Below the pieces are notes generated by a model. That model saw only the letters and a list, made by a program, of their open reading frames with translations. It was not told the origin of the DNA and did no database searches. From positions 1-12,378 of the IMG/VR virus record IMGVR_UViG_2778261571_000002: DNA of 12,378 nt; one strand, given 5' to 3'. The position numbers were made by a program, and so were the translations under genes. The DNA is from a virus (taxonomy: Duplodnaviria; Heunggongvirae; Uroviricota; Caudoviricetes). Shown here one piece after another: positions 1 to 12,352 of the stretch (the first letter of the stretch is position 1; every line of letters begins with the position of its first letter).

Positions 1-94
1 ATCCATCACCGTTGTTGCTCCCGGCAATAATGTCAGGGTGATTTCCGACTGCTTCTATCAGGTCGATGTTTCGCGTTGGTTTGAATGTAATCAT
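1..94 (-). CDS. gp14-like virion/ejection protein, N-terminal fragment only (continues beyond window start)
   Basis: ATG at 94..92 overlaps the gp26 TGA stop (ATGA), and the frame stays open to the window edge ([31 protein letters not shown]...). Position immediately after gp26 matches the P22 order 10-26-14. Call is by synteny only; too short for a family assignment. Confidence 0.4.
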   Translation of the reverse strand, partial: MITFKPTRNIDLIEAVGNHPDIIAGSNNGDG

Positions 95-795
95 CAGTCA
101 ATCAGCCCATGTAATCTAAGTGCTGTTTCAAGCGCCAGAATACGCTGCCGCGCCTGCTGCAAACCTGTAGCGAGAGCTGCGACTTCGGATTGTGTGTACG
201 TAGTGCCGACCGTGTATGACTGGTTAGCGTTGAATGAGCCAAGAAGTGGCGTACCTGTGGCTGCAGTCCATCCGGTATTTCTTGCTCCAACAACCTGAAT
301 TCCATCAACTGAATATGATGTTTTTACATCCAGCGGTGACTCAAGAGACTGCAATTCGGTTACGGTTTTCGATACGTAATCACTCTTAATGCCAGAGACA
401 TCGTTTTCTACGTCATCCAGTCTTTGGTCAACAGTGACCAGATGCGCCTGAATATCGATAACCTCATCCAGCAAGTAATCAACATCGCTACGCAGTACGA
501 CTATCTTCCCTTCGGCGGTTGTTAACCTGACCTCAAGGAGATTTATCGCTTTTGTGTTTGCGGTGATTCTTGCGTCGTGATCAGCCAGTTCGACGTCCTG
601 TTCATCGTTTTTTACCTGGGCATCGTAAGCGCCCTGACCAGCCTGATTTGCCTTCCCGGCAATTGCGCCGACATCAGCTCCCTGATTTATGACATACAGC
701 AGGTAAGACTGGCTGAATATATTGCGTGGCAAAATTGAAGCATCGAGGCGCGTAGCCTGAACCACGACAGGATCATTCAGTGATGAATCAACCAT
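94..795 (-). CDS. tail needle / cell-envelope-penetrating protein (P22 gp26-like), 233 aa
   Basis: The N-terminus ([25 protein letters not shown]...[31 protein letters not shown]) and the middle heptad-like coiled-coil segment match what I recall of P22 gp26. Length equals P22 gp26. Sits directly after gp10, as in P22-like podoviruses. Confidence 0.8.
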
Positions 796-1289
796 TACTC
801 AATCCTCTGCCTTGCAAACTCTCCAAAATTTTCTGCTCTTGCCATCATTGATGCTGAGATAGCTTCGTCCAGGTCATCGAAGCATCCAACGTGAACCTGT
901 TTTTTATTTTTCTTGAAAGAAACAGTCCACTTGCAGAGATTTTTGTGCCAACAGACACCAGGATATCCTGACTTATTATTTCTTTGAATATTCCTGTTCA
1001 TCCCATTCTGGGATCTATTTGCCAATCTTAAATTTGAAAATCTGTTATCCGTTCTGTCTCCGTTAATATGATCTATTAAGCAATTTGCAGGTTTTCCTGT
1101 CATATAAAACCAAGCAAGCCTATGCGCTAAGTATCTCTTACCACAGACCATTATCCTTAAATAACCAGTGCACATGGTTCCCGCTTCATCACCAACGGTG
1201 ACGCTCGCTGTATTTGATATTTTTCGGGTAAAAACCCCGGTTTCTGGGTCATATGATAAATGACGCTTCAACTCTTCATGTGAAATCAT
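795..1289 (-). CDS. HNH homing endonuclease with C-terminal AP2-type DNA-binding domain, 164 aa
   Basis: HNH motif ...[26 protein letters not shown]... followed by an AP2-like segment [37 protein letters not shown]. The gene is visibly more AT-rich than its neighbours. Start is 2 nt after the gp10 stop and the stop overlaps the gp26 ATG (TAATG). GGAG Shine-Dalgarno lies about 6 nt upstream. Confidence 0.85.
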
Positions 1290-1291
1290 TA

Positions 1292-2710
1292 TTACTCCAG
1301 CCTAATAGAGCAGCCTGAGAGAGTGACTGGTGACTTCGTAATAACGCGCAATTTGAAGCCGACATTTTTCCTGATGCGTCCGACACGCTTCCACAAAACG
1401 CGTTTGTCGTAAACGAACGGTTCATTCTGCTCAATCATCTGCTCACGTCCGTAATTGATGCCGTCAGTGGTTGCAGAGAGAAAAAGGCGGTCAGCATACT
1501 GCGCAACGCCAGTTGACGACTCAACTTCAAGGTCGAAAACTCTGGCGTTATCCGCTTTGAACAACGGAGTAAACAGCAGGTGCTCCTGCTGCTTGTCGTA
1601 CTGGCTGCTGATATCGAATTGCAGTTTCCCGGTCACGGATTCCAGCTTATCGCCGCACGTTATCTGATTGCCTTCGTAAATGAAGTCGATAGCGCGGTAC
1701 ACATCGTCATACAGGCCTGTTTTCAGTACACACCATTGCGGACCATTGGCGCTTGAAGATGCGTCGTACACCAGAACATGGCGCGGAAGATGGATAATCA
1801 GCAACTCATGCGCATCAAACCGCAGCGATTCCATCACGCCATCAGCCAGTTCATCAGCAGTGTAGGAGCGAAGAATTTTCTCAATGCTCGCGCTGGCGAT
1901 TGGTGACACCTGACCGGAGCCGATGATATACACAGACGGCGCACCTGTTGCCGGATTGCTGATGAATGCATACGAATCAGCAAACGGCGTTTTGCAGTAA
2001 GTCCCGGCAATACCTTTCTGCACCATCAGCGATGGCTGTGCGACATACAAAGCGGCACCAACAGTGGTTGCACCAGTCAGGGAGAAATATTCAATCGTCG
2101 ATGAACCAAAGCAGACGATGAAGTCTCGCCATGTGCCGATGCCGATGATGCCGTCCGGCTGCGATTCTGCGCGATATTGTGCGCTGTAACGGTCAGGATG
2201 CGATTCGTCTTCAAGGTCAGTGATAAACCATGAATCAGTTCCGTCTTTTGACCACGCATAACGCCCACGTAAGCGCGTAATGTCGCGGACTGAGCCTAAC
2301 TCATACTGAGTGAATCCGCTGTCTGTAGGCCAGTTTGAGACGGTTTTGACCGCGCCATCATAACGATACTCGACCAGTTGACCATTAACGCCTACCGCCT
2401 GTGATGTCCGCCCATGCGCCATTGATACGCGACCACTTCCGGCAACATCACCGACTTCGCTTTCGCCCTTATACAGCTTGCCACCACACACGCGATAAAC
2501 AGCATTCTGCGCCATGTTGTACTCGACGCCTCGAGATACACCGTTCACATCAGAACGTTTGGCAATGCCCGGGAATGAGCGAAGATATCCGCTGCTGTTC
2601 AGGATTTCTTTGGGTGTAGCCAACATATTCGCTGGCAGATAGTCGATATAGTCGGCGTTTCGAAAGTCTTTGCCGACACCTTTCATAAGCGGAAGTTGCT
2701 GAATCGGCAT
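1292..2710 (-). CDS. tail accessory factor / tail hub protein (P22 gp10-like), 472 aa
   Basis: Sequence agrees along its length with what I recall of P22 gp10 (MPIQQLPLMKGVGKDF...NMLATPKEILNSSGYLRSFPGI...VITKSPVTLSGCSIRLE), and the length is the same. Located between the gp4-like and gp26-like genes. Confidence 0.9.
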   Translation of the reverse strand: MPIQQLPLMKGVGKDFRNADYIDYLPANMLATPKEILNSSGYLRSFPGIAKRSDVNGVSRGVEYNMAQNAVYRVCGGKLYKGESEVGDVAGSGRVSMAHGRTSQAVGVNGQLVEYRYDGAVKTVSNWPTDSGFTQYELGSVRDITRLRGRYAWSKDGTDSWFITDLEDESHPDRYSAQYRAESQPDGIIGIGTWRDFIVCFGSSTIEYFSLTGATTVGAALYVAQPSLMVQKGIAGTYCKTPFADSYAFISNPATGAPSVYIIGSGQVSPIASASIEKILRSYTADELADGVMESLRFDAHELLIIHLPRHVLVYDASSSANGPQWCVLKTGLYDDVYRAIDFIYEGNQITCGDKLESVTGKLQFDISSQYDKQQEHLLFTPLFKADNARVFDLEVESSTGVAQYADRLFLSATTDGINYGREQMIEQNEPFVYDKRVLWKRVGRIRKNVGFKLRVITKSPVTLSGCSIRLE

Positions 2711-2719
2711 TTATTCACC

Positions 2720-3181
2720 TCACGTACTCGGATCATCTTTCTCGATGTAAAACCGATTCCACGTAAACGCGCTTTTGTTACCACTACCGCGAGGCATGTC
2801 ATTTCGCCGCTCAAGTGGTGGTATTTTGGTTAAAGCGATGCAGATTGTCTGATATGCACTGTCAGCAGCGGTAAGGAGAGCGTCTGACGGCTGAATGACG
2901 TTATCCATGCACACTTGCACAGCGAGTTTCAAAGCGACGCCATCATTTGCCCATGCAGGGATACCTGAATCATCGTCAGGTAACGGCATGATGCCGTTTT
3001 CTGTATCAGCAAACTGATACCCAAGCTCGATACCTTTCGCCTGCCATGCTGCCATCATGTCTTCGAGGTCATTAATGGCATCTTCAATTGCCTGAGGGTC
3101 AGCATCTGTCAACGTGGCATTGGAATACAGCCCGGCTTTTCGTAAAGCCTTAAGAACGAGATCACCCTTCGTTTTCGCCAT
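2720..3181 (-). CDS. head-to-tail adaptor / head completion protein (P22 gp4-like), 153 aa
   Basis: N-terminus MAKTKGDLVLKALRKAGLYSNATLTDADPQAIEDAINDLEDMMAAWQ resembles the P22 gp4 N-terminus (KTKGDLV..ALRK.G..S.ATLTD). C-terminal ...PRGSGNKSAFTWNRFY is also similar. Syntenic position between coat and gp10. Confidence 0.85.
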   Translation of the reverse strand: MAKTKGDLVLKALRKAGLYSNATLTDADPQAIEDAINDLEDMMAAWQAKGIELGYQFADTENGIMPLPDDDSGIPAWANDGVALKLAVQVCMDNVIQPSDALLTAADSAYQTICIALTKIPPLERRNDMPRGSGNKSAFTWNRFYIEKDDPST

Positions 3182-3350
3182 CTTCTTCCGCCTTAGCCAC
3201 TTTATGCTTCGTTGCGGTTTCTTCAGGAGTTTTTACCCAGCCTTTTTTCAGGTGAGATTTAACTTCTTCGTCATCAACAATGATGTAATCGACAGCAAAC
3301 TGACCACAGGTGATCATGTTGCCCGGCTTATAGAGCATTGTTCGTGCCAT
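3162..3350 (-). CDS. small hypothetical virion-module protein, 62 aa (gp6-like position between coat and adaptor)
   Basis: The track ORF 3162..3389 runs through the coat terminator. The likelier start is the ATG at 3350 (MARTMLYKPGNMITCGQFAVDY...), preceded by GGAG about 7 nt upstream and lying just after the terminator. Its stop overlaps the gp4 start by 20 nt. Sf6-like phages carry a small gene at this position, as I recall. Confidence 0.45.
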   Translation of the reverse strand: MARTMLYKPGNMITCGQFAVDYIIVDDEEVKSHLKKGWVKTPEETATKHKVAKAEEDGENEG

Positions 3351-7847: not shown

Positions 7848-9263
7848 TCAACCTACACCACAAGGAATTGAGTAACTGGAATAGTCGGGTTGCGCAGCCG
7901 ACTCCGGGCAATGCATACACATCATCAGCGCATCAGCCAGGTTAGGAGATGGAATACCGAGCTTCTGCTTCATTTCGACCTTAGTCATAAGCTCCAGCTT
8001 CCCGTTATTATTGAATTTGCGCTGAATCTGCGTCAGTTCTGCAAACAGCTTCTCCAGCATCTTCTCGCCTATCGCTTCTTTGTCGAAACTCAGCATGTCG
8101 TCTGGGTCTGCATACTCACCGTGAACAACCGCCCGATATGTCAGATACAGCCTGTCAGCCAGCGCGTAATAGAATTGCGCTCGCTTATTGCGGAATACAT
8201 CGCCAATAGTGCGAACGTTGTCGCCCTGTACGACTTCATCAGCCCATGCTCCGGCCTGATATGGTGCATCTTCATCGAATGGCGATTCGCTGCCCTTGAA
8301 CATCGTGGCGGTGATTTTCTTGCCGGAGAACGCTTCCGTTGTCTGTCTGCGTAGCCCCGCACCGACGCCATCACCATCCCACAGGTAATGGTCAGCGCCG
8401 TCTTCAATCGCCAGCGAAGTAGCCCAGTCAGCACCCTCGTTGATGTCCATCAGCAGACCTTCGGCAATGCGCTTAACTACCGAACCGTGACGCGATGCGT
8501 AACCTTTAGCATCTGGCCCTGTGTCTGATGGGTCATGCGCAGAAACAACCGCACCCTTCGCTTTCCATCCGAGTTTCTTGTGCGCATCGGTTGCGGCTTC
8601 AAGCCATTCTCGTTTGATGATTGCCATATCACTTGCGCTTACCGGCTCACCAAGCCAGATGTGACGATACAGTGTCGGATTTCTGCGTTTACACTCTTCC
8701 ATCTCAAGACGGAGAACTTCAGGAAAATGTGGGTTGTCGGTGTAGTTCACCGTCAGCAGGCAAATATCATCGGGAGGATTTACAACGAATCGCTGATAGG
8801 TATCGTCGAGTATGTTCTTCGGGTTAAAGCTCACCCATATTTCAGAGAACGGCTTACGGATGGTCGGTATCAGGATATCCCATGATTCCTTCGTTACCGC
8901 TTCCGCTTCTTCCACCCAGCAGATATCAATGCCTTCGAGCGATTTAATCTTCGTCGGGTTGTTTTTGATGCCGTAGAACATGAATTCAGCATTTGTTCCG
9001 AGATGACGAATCATTGAACGCTGAATTTCAAACTCAGCCGAATACCCTTCACGCTCGATGGTATCTTCAAGCAACCGGATTACCGAATCGCTGATACTGT
9101 TTTGCAGTTCACGAGCGCAGAGAATACGCACAGGCTGCCGACGTGCCGCCTCAACAAGCAGCCTCGCAATTGCCCATGATTTACCGCTACCTCGACCGCC
9201 TTTGGCGACTTTGTAGCGATGCGCCTCAATGAACGGTTCAAAGATAGGATTAATCGAGGTCAT
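7848..9263 (-). CDS. terminase large subunit (ATPase/nuclease), 471 aa
   Basis: N-terminal Walker A motif VAKGGRGSGKSWA and a Walker B-like run ICWVEEAEA, with a C-terminal region consistent with the terminase nuclease domain. Start overlaps the small terminase stop (ATGA). Size matches Sf6-type TerL. Confidence 0.9.
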   Translation of the reverse strand: MTSINPIFEPFIEAHRYKVAKGGRGSGKSWAIARLLVEAARRQPVRILCARELQNSISDSVIRLLEDTIEREGYSAEFEIQRSMIRHLGTNAEFMFYGIKNNPTKIKSLEGIDICWVEEAEAVTKESWDILIPTIRKPFSEIWVSFNPKNILDDTYQRFVVNPPDDICLLTVNYTDNPHFPEVLRLEMEECKRRNPTLYRHIWLGEPVSASDMAIIKREWLEAATDAHKKLGWKAKGAVVSAHDPSDTGPDAKGYASRHGSVVKRIAEGLLMDINEGADWATSLAIEDGADHYLWDGDGVGAGLRRQTTEAFSGKKITATMFKGSESPFDEDAPYQAGAWADEVVQGDNVRTIGDVFRNKRAQFYYALADRLYLTYRAVVHGEYADPDDMLSFDKEAIGEKMLEKLFAELTQIQRKFNNNGKLELMTKVEMKQKLGIPSPNLADALMMCMHCPESAAQPDYSSYSIPCGVG

Positions 9264-9700
9264 TTTCCGAATAGAGTGCTCATCGGTGATGTTTCAATCT
9301 GGATTGCGCCGCCGTCTTTGCCTGTTAGTTCGTGATCAACCTTGTCGCGCCATTTATCCTTCTGTCGATTCTTAAGCCAGAAGATGGCAGCGGTTGTATC
9401 AGGCGGGTAATACTTCTCAAGCGGAGTTTCGACAATTCTGTTTTCAATAACACGAATATCGATGTCTGGAGCCACGAAGCCCATAGCGCGTTGATAAAGA
9501 CGATCACTAACTTCTGCATCAGCGACGGCCTTACCCTTTTTTATGGACTCCGAAAACTTAGGATAATCAAGCTTCCACTTGTTAATAGTTGACTCACTGA
9601 CTTCAAAGAAATCAGCAAGTTCTGCGTCTGTATAGCCCAGCAAGCACAGTTTGCGTGCCTGTTCGGCATACGCCTCTTGATACTTTGTTGGGCGCGCCAT
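9260..9700 (-). CDS. terminase small subunit (DNA-recognition subunit), 146 aa
   Basis: Immediately upstream of and overlapping TerL. N-terminal helix-turn-helix-like segment (YTDAELADFFEVSESTINKWK) and a C-terminal tail (...GKDGGAIQIETSPMSTLFGK) typical of the TerL-interacting end of P22/Sf6-type small terminases. Confidence 0.7.
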   Translation of the reverse strand: MARPTKYQEAYAEQARKLCLLGYTDAELADFFEVSESTINKWKLDYPKFSESIKKGKAVADAEVSDRLYQRAMGFVAPDIDIRVIENRIVETPLEKYYPPDTTAAIFWLKNRQKDKWRDKVDHELTGKDGGAIQIETSPMSTLFGK

Positions 9701-9702
9701 GT

Positions 9703-9945
9703 TTATGCTCCGGTAGTGAACAGGTCTAACGCTTCCTTCGATTTACGCACTGCTTCGAATGTGCGGATCGTGATATCCGAATTAGCGCCGCCTGACTGGA
9801 AGTGAATTTTGAATAGCTCAAGCTTCAGTTCGTCAGTGCCAATGAACTGAAATGCTTCCTCTGCGGCTGCGTTCTGGTTCATGACCAGCTTGTAAATCTC
9901 TAACTGGAATTTCTGTTCTTCAGTCATGGGAATAATCTCTGCCAT
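9703..9945 (-). CDS. hypothetical protein, 80 aa (P22 ORF80-like position just upstream of the small terminase)
   Basis: Stop lies 3 nt before the TerS start. Same strand and compact spacing. Size and position match the small ORF upstream of gene 3 in P22-like phages. No recognisable motif. Confidence 0.5.
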   Translation of the reverse strand: MAEIIPMTEEQKFQLEIYKLVMNQNAAAEEAFQFIGTDELKLELFKIHFQSGGANSDITIRTFEAVRKSKEALDLFTTGA

Positions 9946-10048
9946 TGTTGGCTCCGTTTATCCGTTAAAAGGGATATCAGTTAAGTTATCCCGTATAGGG
10001 TATAAGCCATTATCAAAGCCACTCTGTAGGGAATGGCTTTTGTAATAA

Positions 10049-10429
10049 CTACTGTTCGCTTAGCTTCTGCTTCAGCAAGTAACCTTCGAGCATCCAGATT
10101 TTGTTTACAGCATTTTGCCGGGCAATCTTCCGACCAATTTCTGCATCAAAGTTTTCCGGGCTTGCACAGGCGCTCTCTCCGGTGACGGTGAAGCCATTCT
10201 TCAGCACCAGTACGCAGAAAGTGAGCAACTTCAATGGTGATAAATCACGATCGCCTTCTTCTGGTTTTTCCCTGCCACAATATTCGTTGCTGGAAATGGC
10301 ACCATTTCGTCCATCATAAGCAGTAAAGTAATGCTCGCTTTTAATCACGTCTTCGATGTGCTGCGGGGTGATTCGCGGTGCCGTTTGGCCTTTCTCAACG
10401 ATTTCTTTTTCGATTTGCTGGTCGTTCAT
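10049..10429 (-). CDS. hypothetical phage protein, 126 aa (possibly N4 gp49 / Sf6 gene 66-like family; unverified)
   Basis: Clean ORF in the same orientation as the flanking late genes, with an AGGG-type RBS region upstream. Family assignment is a guess from position and size. Confidence 0.45.
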   Translation of the reverse strand: MNDQQIEKEIVEKGQTAPRITPQHIEDVIKSEHYFTAYDGRNGAISSNEYCGREKPEEGDRDLSPLKLLTFCVLVLKNGFTVTGESACASPENFDAEIGRKIARQNAVNKIWMLEGYLLKQKLSEQ

Positions 10430-10669
10430 AATTATGACCCTGTGGAGTGGTTGCTTGATTAGGATGTCTTTCCATCAGTCCGCCACCACAAAGAATCTTT
10501 TTTGCCATAAGGCAGGCGGTTCATCTTTCAGTGGCTGCCAGTGTTATTTCCCCACTTTCTGGCTTGGGTTGTTTCGCTGTACTGCCGTAACTGGTTGCCC
10601 AGAATAAATTCCGGTTTCATTATCAAGCCCACCCGTAGATAGGCTTTGTAATGGATAGCTGTTGCTCAG

Positions 10670-11239
10670 TTATCGTAATGCTTTGATTTTTCCGATAACG
10701 CAGTTTTGCGTTTGCCAACAGCACGCGATATCGAGAGTCAACTGCAGTTGCTCGCGCCAGTACTCAACATTTGCTTCAATAACCGGCTTATCCCATCGCC
10801 AGCGAGCCATCTCTCTTGCCCCATTGCTGGCTTTTGATTTCCGGTCATCGCGAATGCGACATGCTTGCTCATATTTCTGCTGCTCAGTCAGTTCACCGCG
10901 AAGCAGACTATCAATGTGCAGGTCGCACCACACAGCAAAACGAGCATCACACCAACGGGCAAATGCAACTGAAAGTTTTGGATGTAGCCACGTACCACCA
11001 CCCCTGTCCTTTCGTGCCTTGCTGGTTTTTACATACCTCGATTGTGAGGGATGTAAAATTTGAGATTCTTTCCCGGTCAACGCTTCGTCTAAAGCACGAA
11101 CGTATTCAAGCGTTTCTGCCAAACGCATCCAGTTATCAATGCGTTTCCCAAATCTCTCAGCAACACCTGTGACGTTGATCCAACCATCAGTGTTGAAACT
11201 GACAATTTCACCTTTGTAATTAAGTGGCACGATATTCAT
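10670..11239 (-). CDS. KilA-N domain-containing protein, 189 aa
   Basis: N-terminal region carries the characteristic KilA-N signature ...GGGTWLHPKLSVAFARWCDARFAVWCDLHIDSLL (compare the GTW[VI]HP.LA..FA.W consensus). AGGTAA RBS about 7 nt upstream of the ATG. Lies between the lysis cassette and the terminase, where P22-like phages carry rha/ORF201-type accessory genes. Confidence 0.6.
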   Translation of the reverse strand: MNIVPLNYKGEIVSFNTDGWINVTGVAERFGKRIDNWMRLAETLEYVRALDEALTGKESQILHPSQSRYVKTSKARKDRGGGTWLHPKLSVAFARWCDARFAVWCDLHIDSLLRGELTEQQKYEQACRIRDDRKSKASNGAREMARWRWDKPVIEANVEYWREQLQLTLDIACCWQTQNCVIGKIKALR

Positions 11240-11441: not shown

Positions 11442-11879
11442 TTATTTCAGGCATTGCGTCCTGATGTATTCCTGCAGGTAGTTAACCTGCGCGGTTATCC
11501 TGTCGATTCCACTTCGGAGACGGTAATAATTGAGTTCAGCATCTGCTGTAAGTCTTGGGCTTTCTCCATCGCCCATGCTGCTGGCTCCGGTCGTTGACTT
11601 TGCACAGGTGGCGGCGACTTGCAGGCGCTTACGCCCAGCAGAAACATCAGCACGGAGACTTTCGATAGTCGCGTTAGCATCAGCAAGCTCCTTTGTATAT
11701 CTGACATCGAGTTCTGCTACGTCACGTTGACGCTTCTGCATGTCAGCGATGATGTACGTGGCTTTATCGCGCTGTTCTTTATAGGTAATGGCGTTATCAC
11801 GGTAATGATTAACAGCCCATGACAGGCAGACGATGATGCAGATAACCAGAGCGGAGATAATCGCGGTTACTCTGCTCAT
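11442..11879 (-). CDS. Rz: Rz spanin, inner-membrane subunit (i-spanin), 145 aa
   Basis: N-terminal transmembrane segment [34 protein letters not shown] closely matches lambda Rz as I recall it, followed by a coiled-coil periplasmic domain. Start overlaps the R stop (ATGA). Confidence 0.9.
11495..11680 (-). CDS. Rz1: Rz1 spanin, outer-membrane lipoprotein subunit (o-spanin), embedded in the +1 frame of Rz
   Basis: Alternate-frame ORF wholly inside Rz. Signal peptide [19 protein letters not shown] with lipobox V-S-A-C, and a short proline-rich mature domain [17 protein letters not shown]..., as in lambda Rz1. Start taken at the Met before the hydrophobic core; the track ORF extends upstream to 11707. 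Confidence 0.75.
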
Positions 11880-12352
11880 ACCTCAATCTCTCTGACTGTT
11901 CCGCCAGCTTCTTTGAATTTTGCAATCAGGCTGTCAGCCTTATGCTCGAACTGGCCATAACCAGCCCCGGGCAACGAAGCCCAGATATTGCTGCAACGGT
12001 CGATTGCCTGACGAATATCACCGCGATCAATCATCGGCAAAGCGCCACGCTCTTTAATCTGTTGCAATGCCACAGCGTCCTGGCTTTTGGGAGAGAAGTC
12101 TTTCAGGCCAAGCTGCTTGCGGTAGGCATCCCACCAACGGGAAAGAAGCTGGTAGCGTCCGGCGGCTGTTGATTTGAGTTTTGGGTTTAGCGTGACAAGT
12201 TTGCGAGGGTGATCGGAGTAATCAGTGAATAGCTCTCCGCCAACAATGACGTCATAACCATGATTTCTGGTCTTCTGACGTCCGTTATCAGTTCCCTCTG
12301 ACCACGCCAGCATATCGAGGAACGCCTTACGTTGATTATTGATTTCCACCAT
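11876..12352 (-). CDS. R: endolysin, lambda R-type lytic transglycosylase, 158 aa
   Basis: Near-identical along its length to lambda R as I recall it ([51 protein letters not shown]...), including the catalytic Glu in the AWSEGTD motif. Confidence 0.95.

Follow-up and report, generated by a model that had tools for sequence, protein, structure and literature searches.

Homing endonuclease genes (HEGs) that join an HNH nuclease to an AP2 DNA-binding domain form a recognised family in phages, cyanobacteria and protists (Magnani et al. 2004, as cited in PMC10448857; bioRxiv 10.64898/2026.02.23.707548). ICP1, whose 'IPA-HNH' HEGs are diverged relatives of this family, has HEGs at boundaries of genetic exchange (PMC10448857). 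Elsewhere in P22-like genomes, HEGs are known as gene 31 of epsilon34 and in the terminase-portal interval of SEN22 (PMC2629481, PMC5261728). I-HmuI of Bacillus phage SPO1 (PDB 1U3E) is an HNH nicking homing endonuclease, which is encoded by an intron and ends in a helix-turn-helix module. Phage-borne HEGs can also be free-standing, as the one studied here very probably is. In T4, the HEG mobA and the gene 60 bypass element reportedly make up such a free-standing cassette, which carries its own protection.

The gene analysed here lies in a stretch of 12,378 nt, hereafter the window, which represents the late region of a CUS-3/HK620-like (Lederbergvirus) phage or prophage of E. coli. Very probably, it is a free-standing HEG that invaded the overlapping stop/start junction of the essential genes gp10 (tail hub) and gp26. 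With other HNH-AP2 HEGs it shares an N-terminal HNH_3 domain, a C-terminal AP2 domain and a size of about 160-180 aa, and, as in them, the gene is free-standing and AT-rich, with a sporadic presence among phage genomes that are otherwise syntenic. It differs from them in its setting, since its nearest homologues in sequenced phages are at most 48% identical and have siphovirus or myovirus contexts, whereas the present clade occupies the gp10/gp26 junction of P22-like podoviruses. Unlike I-HmuI, it is not encoded by an intron, its C-terminal module is AP2 rather than helix-turn-helix, and sequence identity between the two enzymes is only 22%. With T4 mobA/gene 60 and the ICP1 HEGs it would have in common intronless homing, adjacent sequence that travels along and alters the carrier's presumed target, and a location at an exchange boundary. 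In contrast to these two systems, its putative protective sequence is a recoded gene terminus of 15 nt, and the HEG reading frame is fused in frame to the displaced terminus, which keeps the translational coupling of the essential gene downstream. A literature search found neither a HEG at the gp10/gp26 site nor work on the present protein; an earlier description is possible, and the junction is apparently new as a HEG site. The case is a clear but ordinary one of a known kind of mobile element, and its most interesting feature is the recoded-terminus design.

All genes of the window are on the minus strand (Table 1). Among phage records, the window is nearest to CUS-3, phiv205-1 and other E. 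coli Lederbergviruses (about 96% identity). A zone of accessory genes (9703..11239) stands beside the lysis genes. Within the latter, an ORF with a lipobox-like LLGVSAC (11495..11707) is nested out of frame in another ORF (11442..11879), an arrangement as expected of an Rz/Rz1 pair. In gp10, diversity among HEG-carrying loci rises at window positions 1501..1600 (pi 0.116, against about 0.05 in the rest of the gene), which suggests a small mosaic segment.

Table 1. Features of the window, with the second HEG of other genomes in the last row (positions are those of the window unless a locus is given)
Feature	Position	Strand	Remarks
Window, P22-like late region	12,378 nt	-	All genes on this strand
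Lysis genes	11442..12352	-	By position and size
KilA-N protein	10670..11239	-	Accessory, between lysis and terminase genes
N4 gp49/Sf6 gene 66 family protein	10049..10429	-	Accessory, lysis-terminase interval
DUF2560 protein	9703..9945	-	Accessory, lysis-terminase interval
Terminase small subunit	9260..9700	-	Annotation of matching phage records
Terminase large subunit	7848..9263	-	Annotation of matching phage records
Portal, scaffold, coat	Downstream of terminase in reading order	-	Names from annotation of matching phage records
gp4	2720..3181	-	Precedes gp10 in reading order
gp10 (head-closure / packaged-DNA stabilisation protein)	1292..2710	-	Pfam Phage_stabilise 8e-300
gp10 part outside the cassette	1310..2710	-	
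Near-invariant mobile block	792..1315	-	524 nt: HEG ORF, recoded gp10 tail, some conserved bases of the flanks; common to the 19 carriers compared
Recoded last five gp10 codons and stop	1292..1309	-	TCT ATT AGG CTG GAG TAA (SIRLE-stop)
Spacer TA, gp10 stop to HEG ATG	1290..1291	-	2 nt, direct sequence reading
Endonuclease ORF	795..1289	-	164 aa, ATG start
HNH_3 nuclease core, aa 53-97	999..1133	-	
HNH motif D73-H74...N86...N95, residues 73-95	1005..1073	-	As quoted in the sequence-only reading
AP2-type DNA-binding domain, aa 107-153	831..971	-	
HEG 3' end, CAG AGG ATT GAG TAA (QRIE-stop)	795..809	-	Copy of original gp10 3' end (putative)
gp26 tail needle gene, P22/HK620-type	94..795	-	233 aa; tail needle by annotation of related phages
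Second HEG loci	L011:3349-4074; L012:3661-4245; L024:548-1129		E. coli 23CRST047; Salmonella phage UPF_BP1; IMG/VR contig

A sequence-only reading of this DNA had proposed that an AT-rich ORF encoding 164 aa, with HNH and AP2 segments, was a homing endonuclease gene wedged into a conserved structural operon. The position that it gave is exact: on the coding strand, the ORF begins 2 nt past the gp10 stop (CTGGAG TAA TA ATG ATT) and shares 1 nt of its stop with the gp26 start (ATTGAG TAATG G). Base composition, which had been judged by eye, was calculated, and the GC content of the ORF is 39.4%, compared with 48.6-51.4% for the neighbouring genes and 49.3% for the window (GC3 of the ORF, 37.6%). 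The ORF has the lowest GC of any 495-nt stretch in the window, and no such stretch outside it falls below 44.0%.

Profile searches recovered both of the proposed domains. PF13392 (HNH_3) matched with 58.7 bits for a cut-off of 24.8 (E 4.3e-16), PHROG_99 'HNH endonuclease' matched at 4e-70, and Pfam AP2 gave E 8.2e-05, under its gathering score. As a search of the PDB with the single sequence gave weak matches only, a family profile and structure comparison were used instead. The profile, built on 46 homologues, matched the AP2 domain of WRINKLED1 (4.9e-08) and I-HmuI (6.8e-06). Residues D73, H74, N86 and N98 are invariant across the family, and the catalytic residues of the beta-beta-alpha-metal type are all there, namely the Asp-His general base, the structural Asn and the metal-binding Asn. 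For the AP2 region, both a profile match and the fold of a three-stranded sheet packed on a helix were found. Judged from these profiles and folds, the protein is an I-HmuI-like HNH nuclease domain fused to a C-terminal AP2 domain. We considered a derivation of its N-terminus (ATGATTTCA) from the gp26 start (ATGGTTGATTCA), and rejected it because MI(T/S)xEELK is the typical N-terminus of the family.

RefSeq holds an identical protein, WP_021529423.1, already named 'HNH endonuclease'. NCBIfam has a model neither for the gp10/gp26 HEG nor for the NUMOD4-HNH_3 HEG presented below. The same gene is labelled 'endolysin' in phage vB_EcoP-683R2 (ON470594.1, L001:3795-4289), and homologues of 44-46% identity are labelled 'putative class I holin' in S4lw, 'endolysin' in STP03 and 'Fis family transcriptional regulator' in Ralstonia phage GP4.

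The gp10-gp26 junction is tight in relatives, as the earlier reading held: stop and start overlap as GAGTAATGG in CUS-3, HK620, Sf6, EC.P3 and E. coli prophages. In P22, there is a 3-nt spacer and no overlap. The empty-site twin of the window is a prophage of E. coli EC6 (L054), whose gp10 and gp26 proteins are 98.5% and 97.4% identical to those of the window, and which matches it base for base on both sides of the insertion. On the coding strand, the empty allele reads ...TCAGGCTGC CAGATAAGGATTGAG TAATGGTTGAT..., and the window allele reads ...TCAGGCTGC TCTATTAGGCTGGAG TAA TA ATG(HEG)...GCAAGG CAGAGGATTGAG TAATGGTTGAT..., for a net insertion of 497 nt. The insertion is thus at the junction, as had been proposed, but it is not purely intergenic, for comparison with the twin places it inside gp10, after Cys467.

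The gp10 protein nevertheless keeps its full length, because the cassette brings a recoded version of the last five gp10 codons and the stop. This tail replaces CAG ATA AGG ATT GAG TAA (QIRIE-stop) of the empty-site alleles, and gp10 ends in CSIRLE instead of CQIRIE. From CAGATAAGGATTGAG to TCTATTAGGCTGGAG, 6 of the 15 bases are changed, in carriers only, and the recoded tail is invariant in all carriers compared. In the complete genomes of E. coli, the best 16 matches to the recoded gp10 end are precisely the 16 HEG carriers. By reading of the sequence, the Shine-Dalgarno motif of the HEG, GGAG, lies within this tail.

At the other end of the cassette, alignment of the alleles places the empty site ...CAGATAAGGATTGAGTAATGG against the HEG end ...CAGAGGATTGAGTAATGG. 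Members of the protein family mostly stop 2-3 residues past GEFAR, which is conserved, and in the predicted model pLDDT is low for the four final residues of the HEG protein. We infer that the QRIE-stop tail is the original gp10 3' end, retained. Since the HEG reading frame runs into this tail, the AGGA ribosome-binding site of gp26 and its TAATG stop/start coupling are kept. The core of the empty junction, CAGATAAGGAT(T/C)GAGTAATGG, varies hardly at all across 8 phages and prophages that lack the HEG, including those with differing gp26 N-termini, and the empty junctions of CUS-3, HK620 and E. coli EC6 contain GGCTGCCAGATAAGGATTGAGTAATGG.

In CUS-3, HK620 and EC.P3 (L005, L006, L009), the insertion point lies within CTGGC-T-GCCAG, a perfect inverted repeat of 5 bp (window equivalent about 1305..1320), which encodes Ser-Gly-Cys-Gln of gp10. 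The repeat is off by one or two bases in EC6, Sf6, UPF_BP1, MS1657 and 23CRST047, and it is lost in carriers, GCCAG having become GCTCT. As a lead, this palindrome may be part of the recognition site.

Some P22-like prophages have a second HEG, between gp4 and gp10. It encodes a NUMOD4 + HNH_3 protein of 194 aa (WP_021529421.1) and has a GC content of 0.42. The corresponding site of the window (2711..2719) is empty, and one IMG/VR contig (L024) has both HEGs together. At the locus of E. coli 23CRST047, which was inspected base by base, the first 31 original gp10 codons are left upstream as a truncated ORF, and the cassette's AT-rich, recoded gp10 N-terminus overlaps the 3' end of the HEG itself. 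The two elements are alike in host module, in AT-richness and in bringing a recoded copy of the displaced gp10 terminus, in mirror-image designs as seen at that locus. They differ in their proteins, which are unrelated beyond the HNH core (BLASTP E 0.08) and carry NUMOD4 in one case and AP2 in the other, and they sit at opposite ends of gp10. We tentatively raise the possibility that gp10 is a recurrent homing target, invaded from both ends by two unrelated HNH endonucleases, each of which enters this essential, translationally coupled gene with a recoded version of the displaced terminus: 5 codons of the 3' end for the gp10/gp26 element, and 31 codons of the 5' end for the NUMOD4-HNH one.

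The gene is missing from P22, Sf6, HK620 and CUS-3, the relatives that the sequence-only reading had named for comparison. It is also missing from IME10 and Sf101. Among 128 phage records matching positions 1..3200 of the window, a single one has it, Escherichia phage vB_EcoP-683R2, at the same place and 99.8% identical; no other P22-like record matched the DNA of the gene. In 5,426 complete genomes of E. coli, gp10 was found in 923 and the HEG in 16, a frequency of about 2% of genomes with gp10, and all 16 copies are at least 99.6% identical. The gene was present in 10 IMG/VR contigs, every time at the gp10/gp26 junction. Far from being universal in related genomes with matching composition, it is sporadic and compositionally deviant. 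Together with the domains, this spread and this composition support the proposal of a free-standing HEG that invaded a structural operon.

Outside of this clade, the next-nearest homologues in sequenced phages belong to unrelated genomes, and the species-representative genomes of GTDB hold homologues of at most 50% identity. None of 100 loci with such distant homologues (50% identity or less) adjoins gp10, gp26 or gp4. Therefore, site specificity is a property of the gp10/gp26 clade.

Not all copies are intact. Three of the 16 E. coli copies (FDAARGOS_1280, strains 2779 and 5283) matched over 387 of 497 nt; the one inspected, in FDAARGOS_1280 (L004:4001-5830), has an IS2 insertion. An IMG/VR copy (L033:2501-2991) is frameshifted after codon 43. 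Disrupted and frameshifted copies are as expected from the life cycle of HEGs. One HEG-carrying P22-like prophage is found on a 176-kb record labelled plasmid p3 (L018, NZ_JBXRYH010000004.1, E. coli EC20).

The junction is also occupied in more distant relatives. Two metagenomic lineages, P0003 (78% identical) and P0004 (75%), represented by contigs L013-L017, have the gene at this place with the same geometry: gp10 ends in Cys-Ser-(I/V)-Arg-(L/V)-Glu and the HEG in KRIE-stop. In L013, the longest of these contigs, the gp10 protein is 72% identical to that of the window and the needle has 276 aa. In all three lineages, GC content is about 0.40 for the HEG versus about 0.50 for the flanks. Between the window and L013, pN and pS are 0.10 and 0.62 for the HEG (dN/dS about 0.08), and 0.155 and 0.90 for the adjacent gp10 C-terminus. 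By these values, the protein is under strong purifying selection, and in this comparison the HEG is less diverged than its gp10 neighbour. With homologues of 75-78% identity in the same junction, the history of the element at this site is longer than a single invasion.

The presence of these homologues in distant P22-like phages, together with a HEG divergence of the same order as that of gp10, is also what might be seen if the gene were an ancestral member of the P22-like virion module, lost from most lineages. We hold this to be very improbable, since within the E. coli lineage the HEG is near-identical while its flanks differ by 5-20%, and since its GC is about 10 points under the flanks in each of the three lineages. 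Moreover, non-carriers show a clean overlapping stop/start, free of remnants, the recoded tail is absent among the best-matching non-carrier alleles, and in the comparison with L013 the HEG has the lower pS, at 0.62 against 0.90 in the gp10 sequence next to it.

The recent movement of the element was followed in an alignment of 19 carriers, composed of the window, 683R2, eight E. coli genomes and nine IMG/VR contigs. The block 792..1315 has 6 variable sites in 524 nt, with pi ranging from 0.001 to 0.008 (about 0.002). In the same carriers, the gp10 flank has a pi of about 0.05 and 14 haplotypes, and the first 250 nt of gp26 have a pi of 0.10-0.21 and 15 haplotypes. The switch in diversity is abrupt on both sides, at 1315/1316 and 791/792, with variable sites resuming at 1316 in gp10 and at 791 in gp26. 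WP_021529423.1 is found beside at least 5 different needle proteins, including a 317-aa knob needle of the Sf6 type. A block of about 0.5 kb moves as one piece among otherwise divergent P22-like genomes, and the pattern is the one that recent, repeated block transfer into diverged backgrounds would give.

No gradient of flanking diversity, as a co-conversion tract would leave, was visible across the 19 carriers, so co-conversion tracts are either very short or erased by later recombination. This missing gradient is the main opening for another explanation, in which the gene is a moron-like passenger, acquired once and spread by general homologous recombination, while its nuclease acts on some other target (competing phages, host DNA) or no longer drives transfer. 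The sharp edges of the block do fall at bases conserved in all P22-like phages (GGCTGC, GAGTAATGG), the gp10/gp26 boundary also swaps needle types, and a frequency of only about 2% would suit a passenger. Ordinary homologous recombination at the conserved junction bases, after a single acquisition, could likewise have shuffled the flanks. We nevertheless find a passenger unlikely. A 524-nt block with a pi of about 0.002, amid flanks at 0.05-0.2 and in at least 14 backgrounds, needs recent and repeated spread of the block. A recoded terminus of the target gene is expected of a self-immunising HEG, and the second HEG, at the opposite end of gp10, shows its mirror image. Finally, the clade keeps to its site across lineages in which gp10 is merely 72% identical.

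Strong purifying selection on the protein could also be the mark of a function that serves the phage, as a domesticated AP2 DNA-binding regulator or as a packaging HNH protein of the HK97 gp74 type. In phages and satellites, AP2 and related DNA-binding domains of HEGs have indeed been recruited as regulators (PMC10448857; bioRxiv 10.64898/2026.02.23.707548). Such a role is highly unlikely here, given that no family member varies at the catalytic D-H...N...N residues, which are intact here, that about 98% of closely related, functional phages do without the gene, and that copies disrupted by IS2 or by a frameshift exist. Unlike an HNH protein of the HK97 gp74 type, the gene is not adjacent to the terminase genes (7848..9700), from which it is separated by some 6.5 kb. 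P22-like phages package DNA by a headful mechanism, for which an HNH partner is unneeded.

The favoured reading, a homing endonuclease gene that targets the gp10/gp26 junction, leads to the following scheme. A scan of positions 500..1700 on the coding (minus) strand found no consensus promoter or terminator, so the HEG is presumably read from the late operon transcript, by way of the GGAG in the recoded tail. RNA folding around its ribosome-binding site gave no sign of a regulatory hairpin or of one sequestering the site (z = 0.17). The enzyme would thus be made late. In a cell with both a carrier and a non-carrier P22-like genome, through co-infection or infection of a lysogen, it would recognise the conserved empty junction, about GGCTGC^CAGATAAGGATTGAGTAATGG, by means of its AP2 and N-terminal domains, and nick or cut there, this target being deduced from the insertion point. 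Enzymes of the I-HmuI type can nick one strand instead of cutting both. Repair by recombination with the carrier allele would then copy the cassette in. Two changes would make the carrier allele itself immune: the insertion separates the halves of the site, and in the left half 6 of 15 bases are rewritten. The right half of the presumed target (AGGATTGAGTAATGG) is intact in carriers, so immunity would require that recognition extend leftwards across the insertion point. A frequency of about 2% despite long residence implies that drive is weak or opposed.

To our knowledge, few HNH-AP2 enzymes have been characterised, and the class is linked in evolution to the AP2 transcription factors of plants and apicomplexans. 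The present locus, with filled and empty alleles known to the base and the existing genetics of P22, HK620, CUS-3 and Sf6, offers a tractable system, suited to defining HNH-AP2 specificity. The finding also corrects annotation in databases, where several records name the gene or a relative of it as endolysin, holin or Fis-family regulator.

The locus illustrates cleanly, in nature, how a junction devoid of intergenic space can take up a selfish nuclease gene while two essential genes stay unharmed. If the design is general, free-standing HEGs would have in 'recoded-terminus cassettes' an insertion strategy of a distinct kind, and a systematic search could look for short, hyper-divergent termini of genes beside nuclease genes. 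If the proposed cutting at the gp10/gp26 junction is true, it could drive the exchange of tail-needle types among P22-like phages, and the role of HEGs in the mosaicism of the needle module could be tested in this system.
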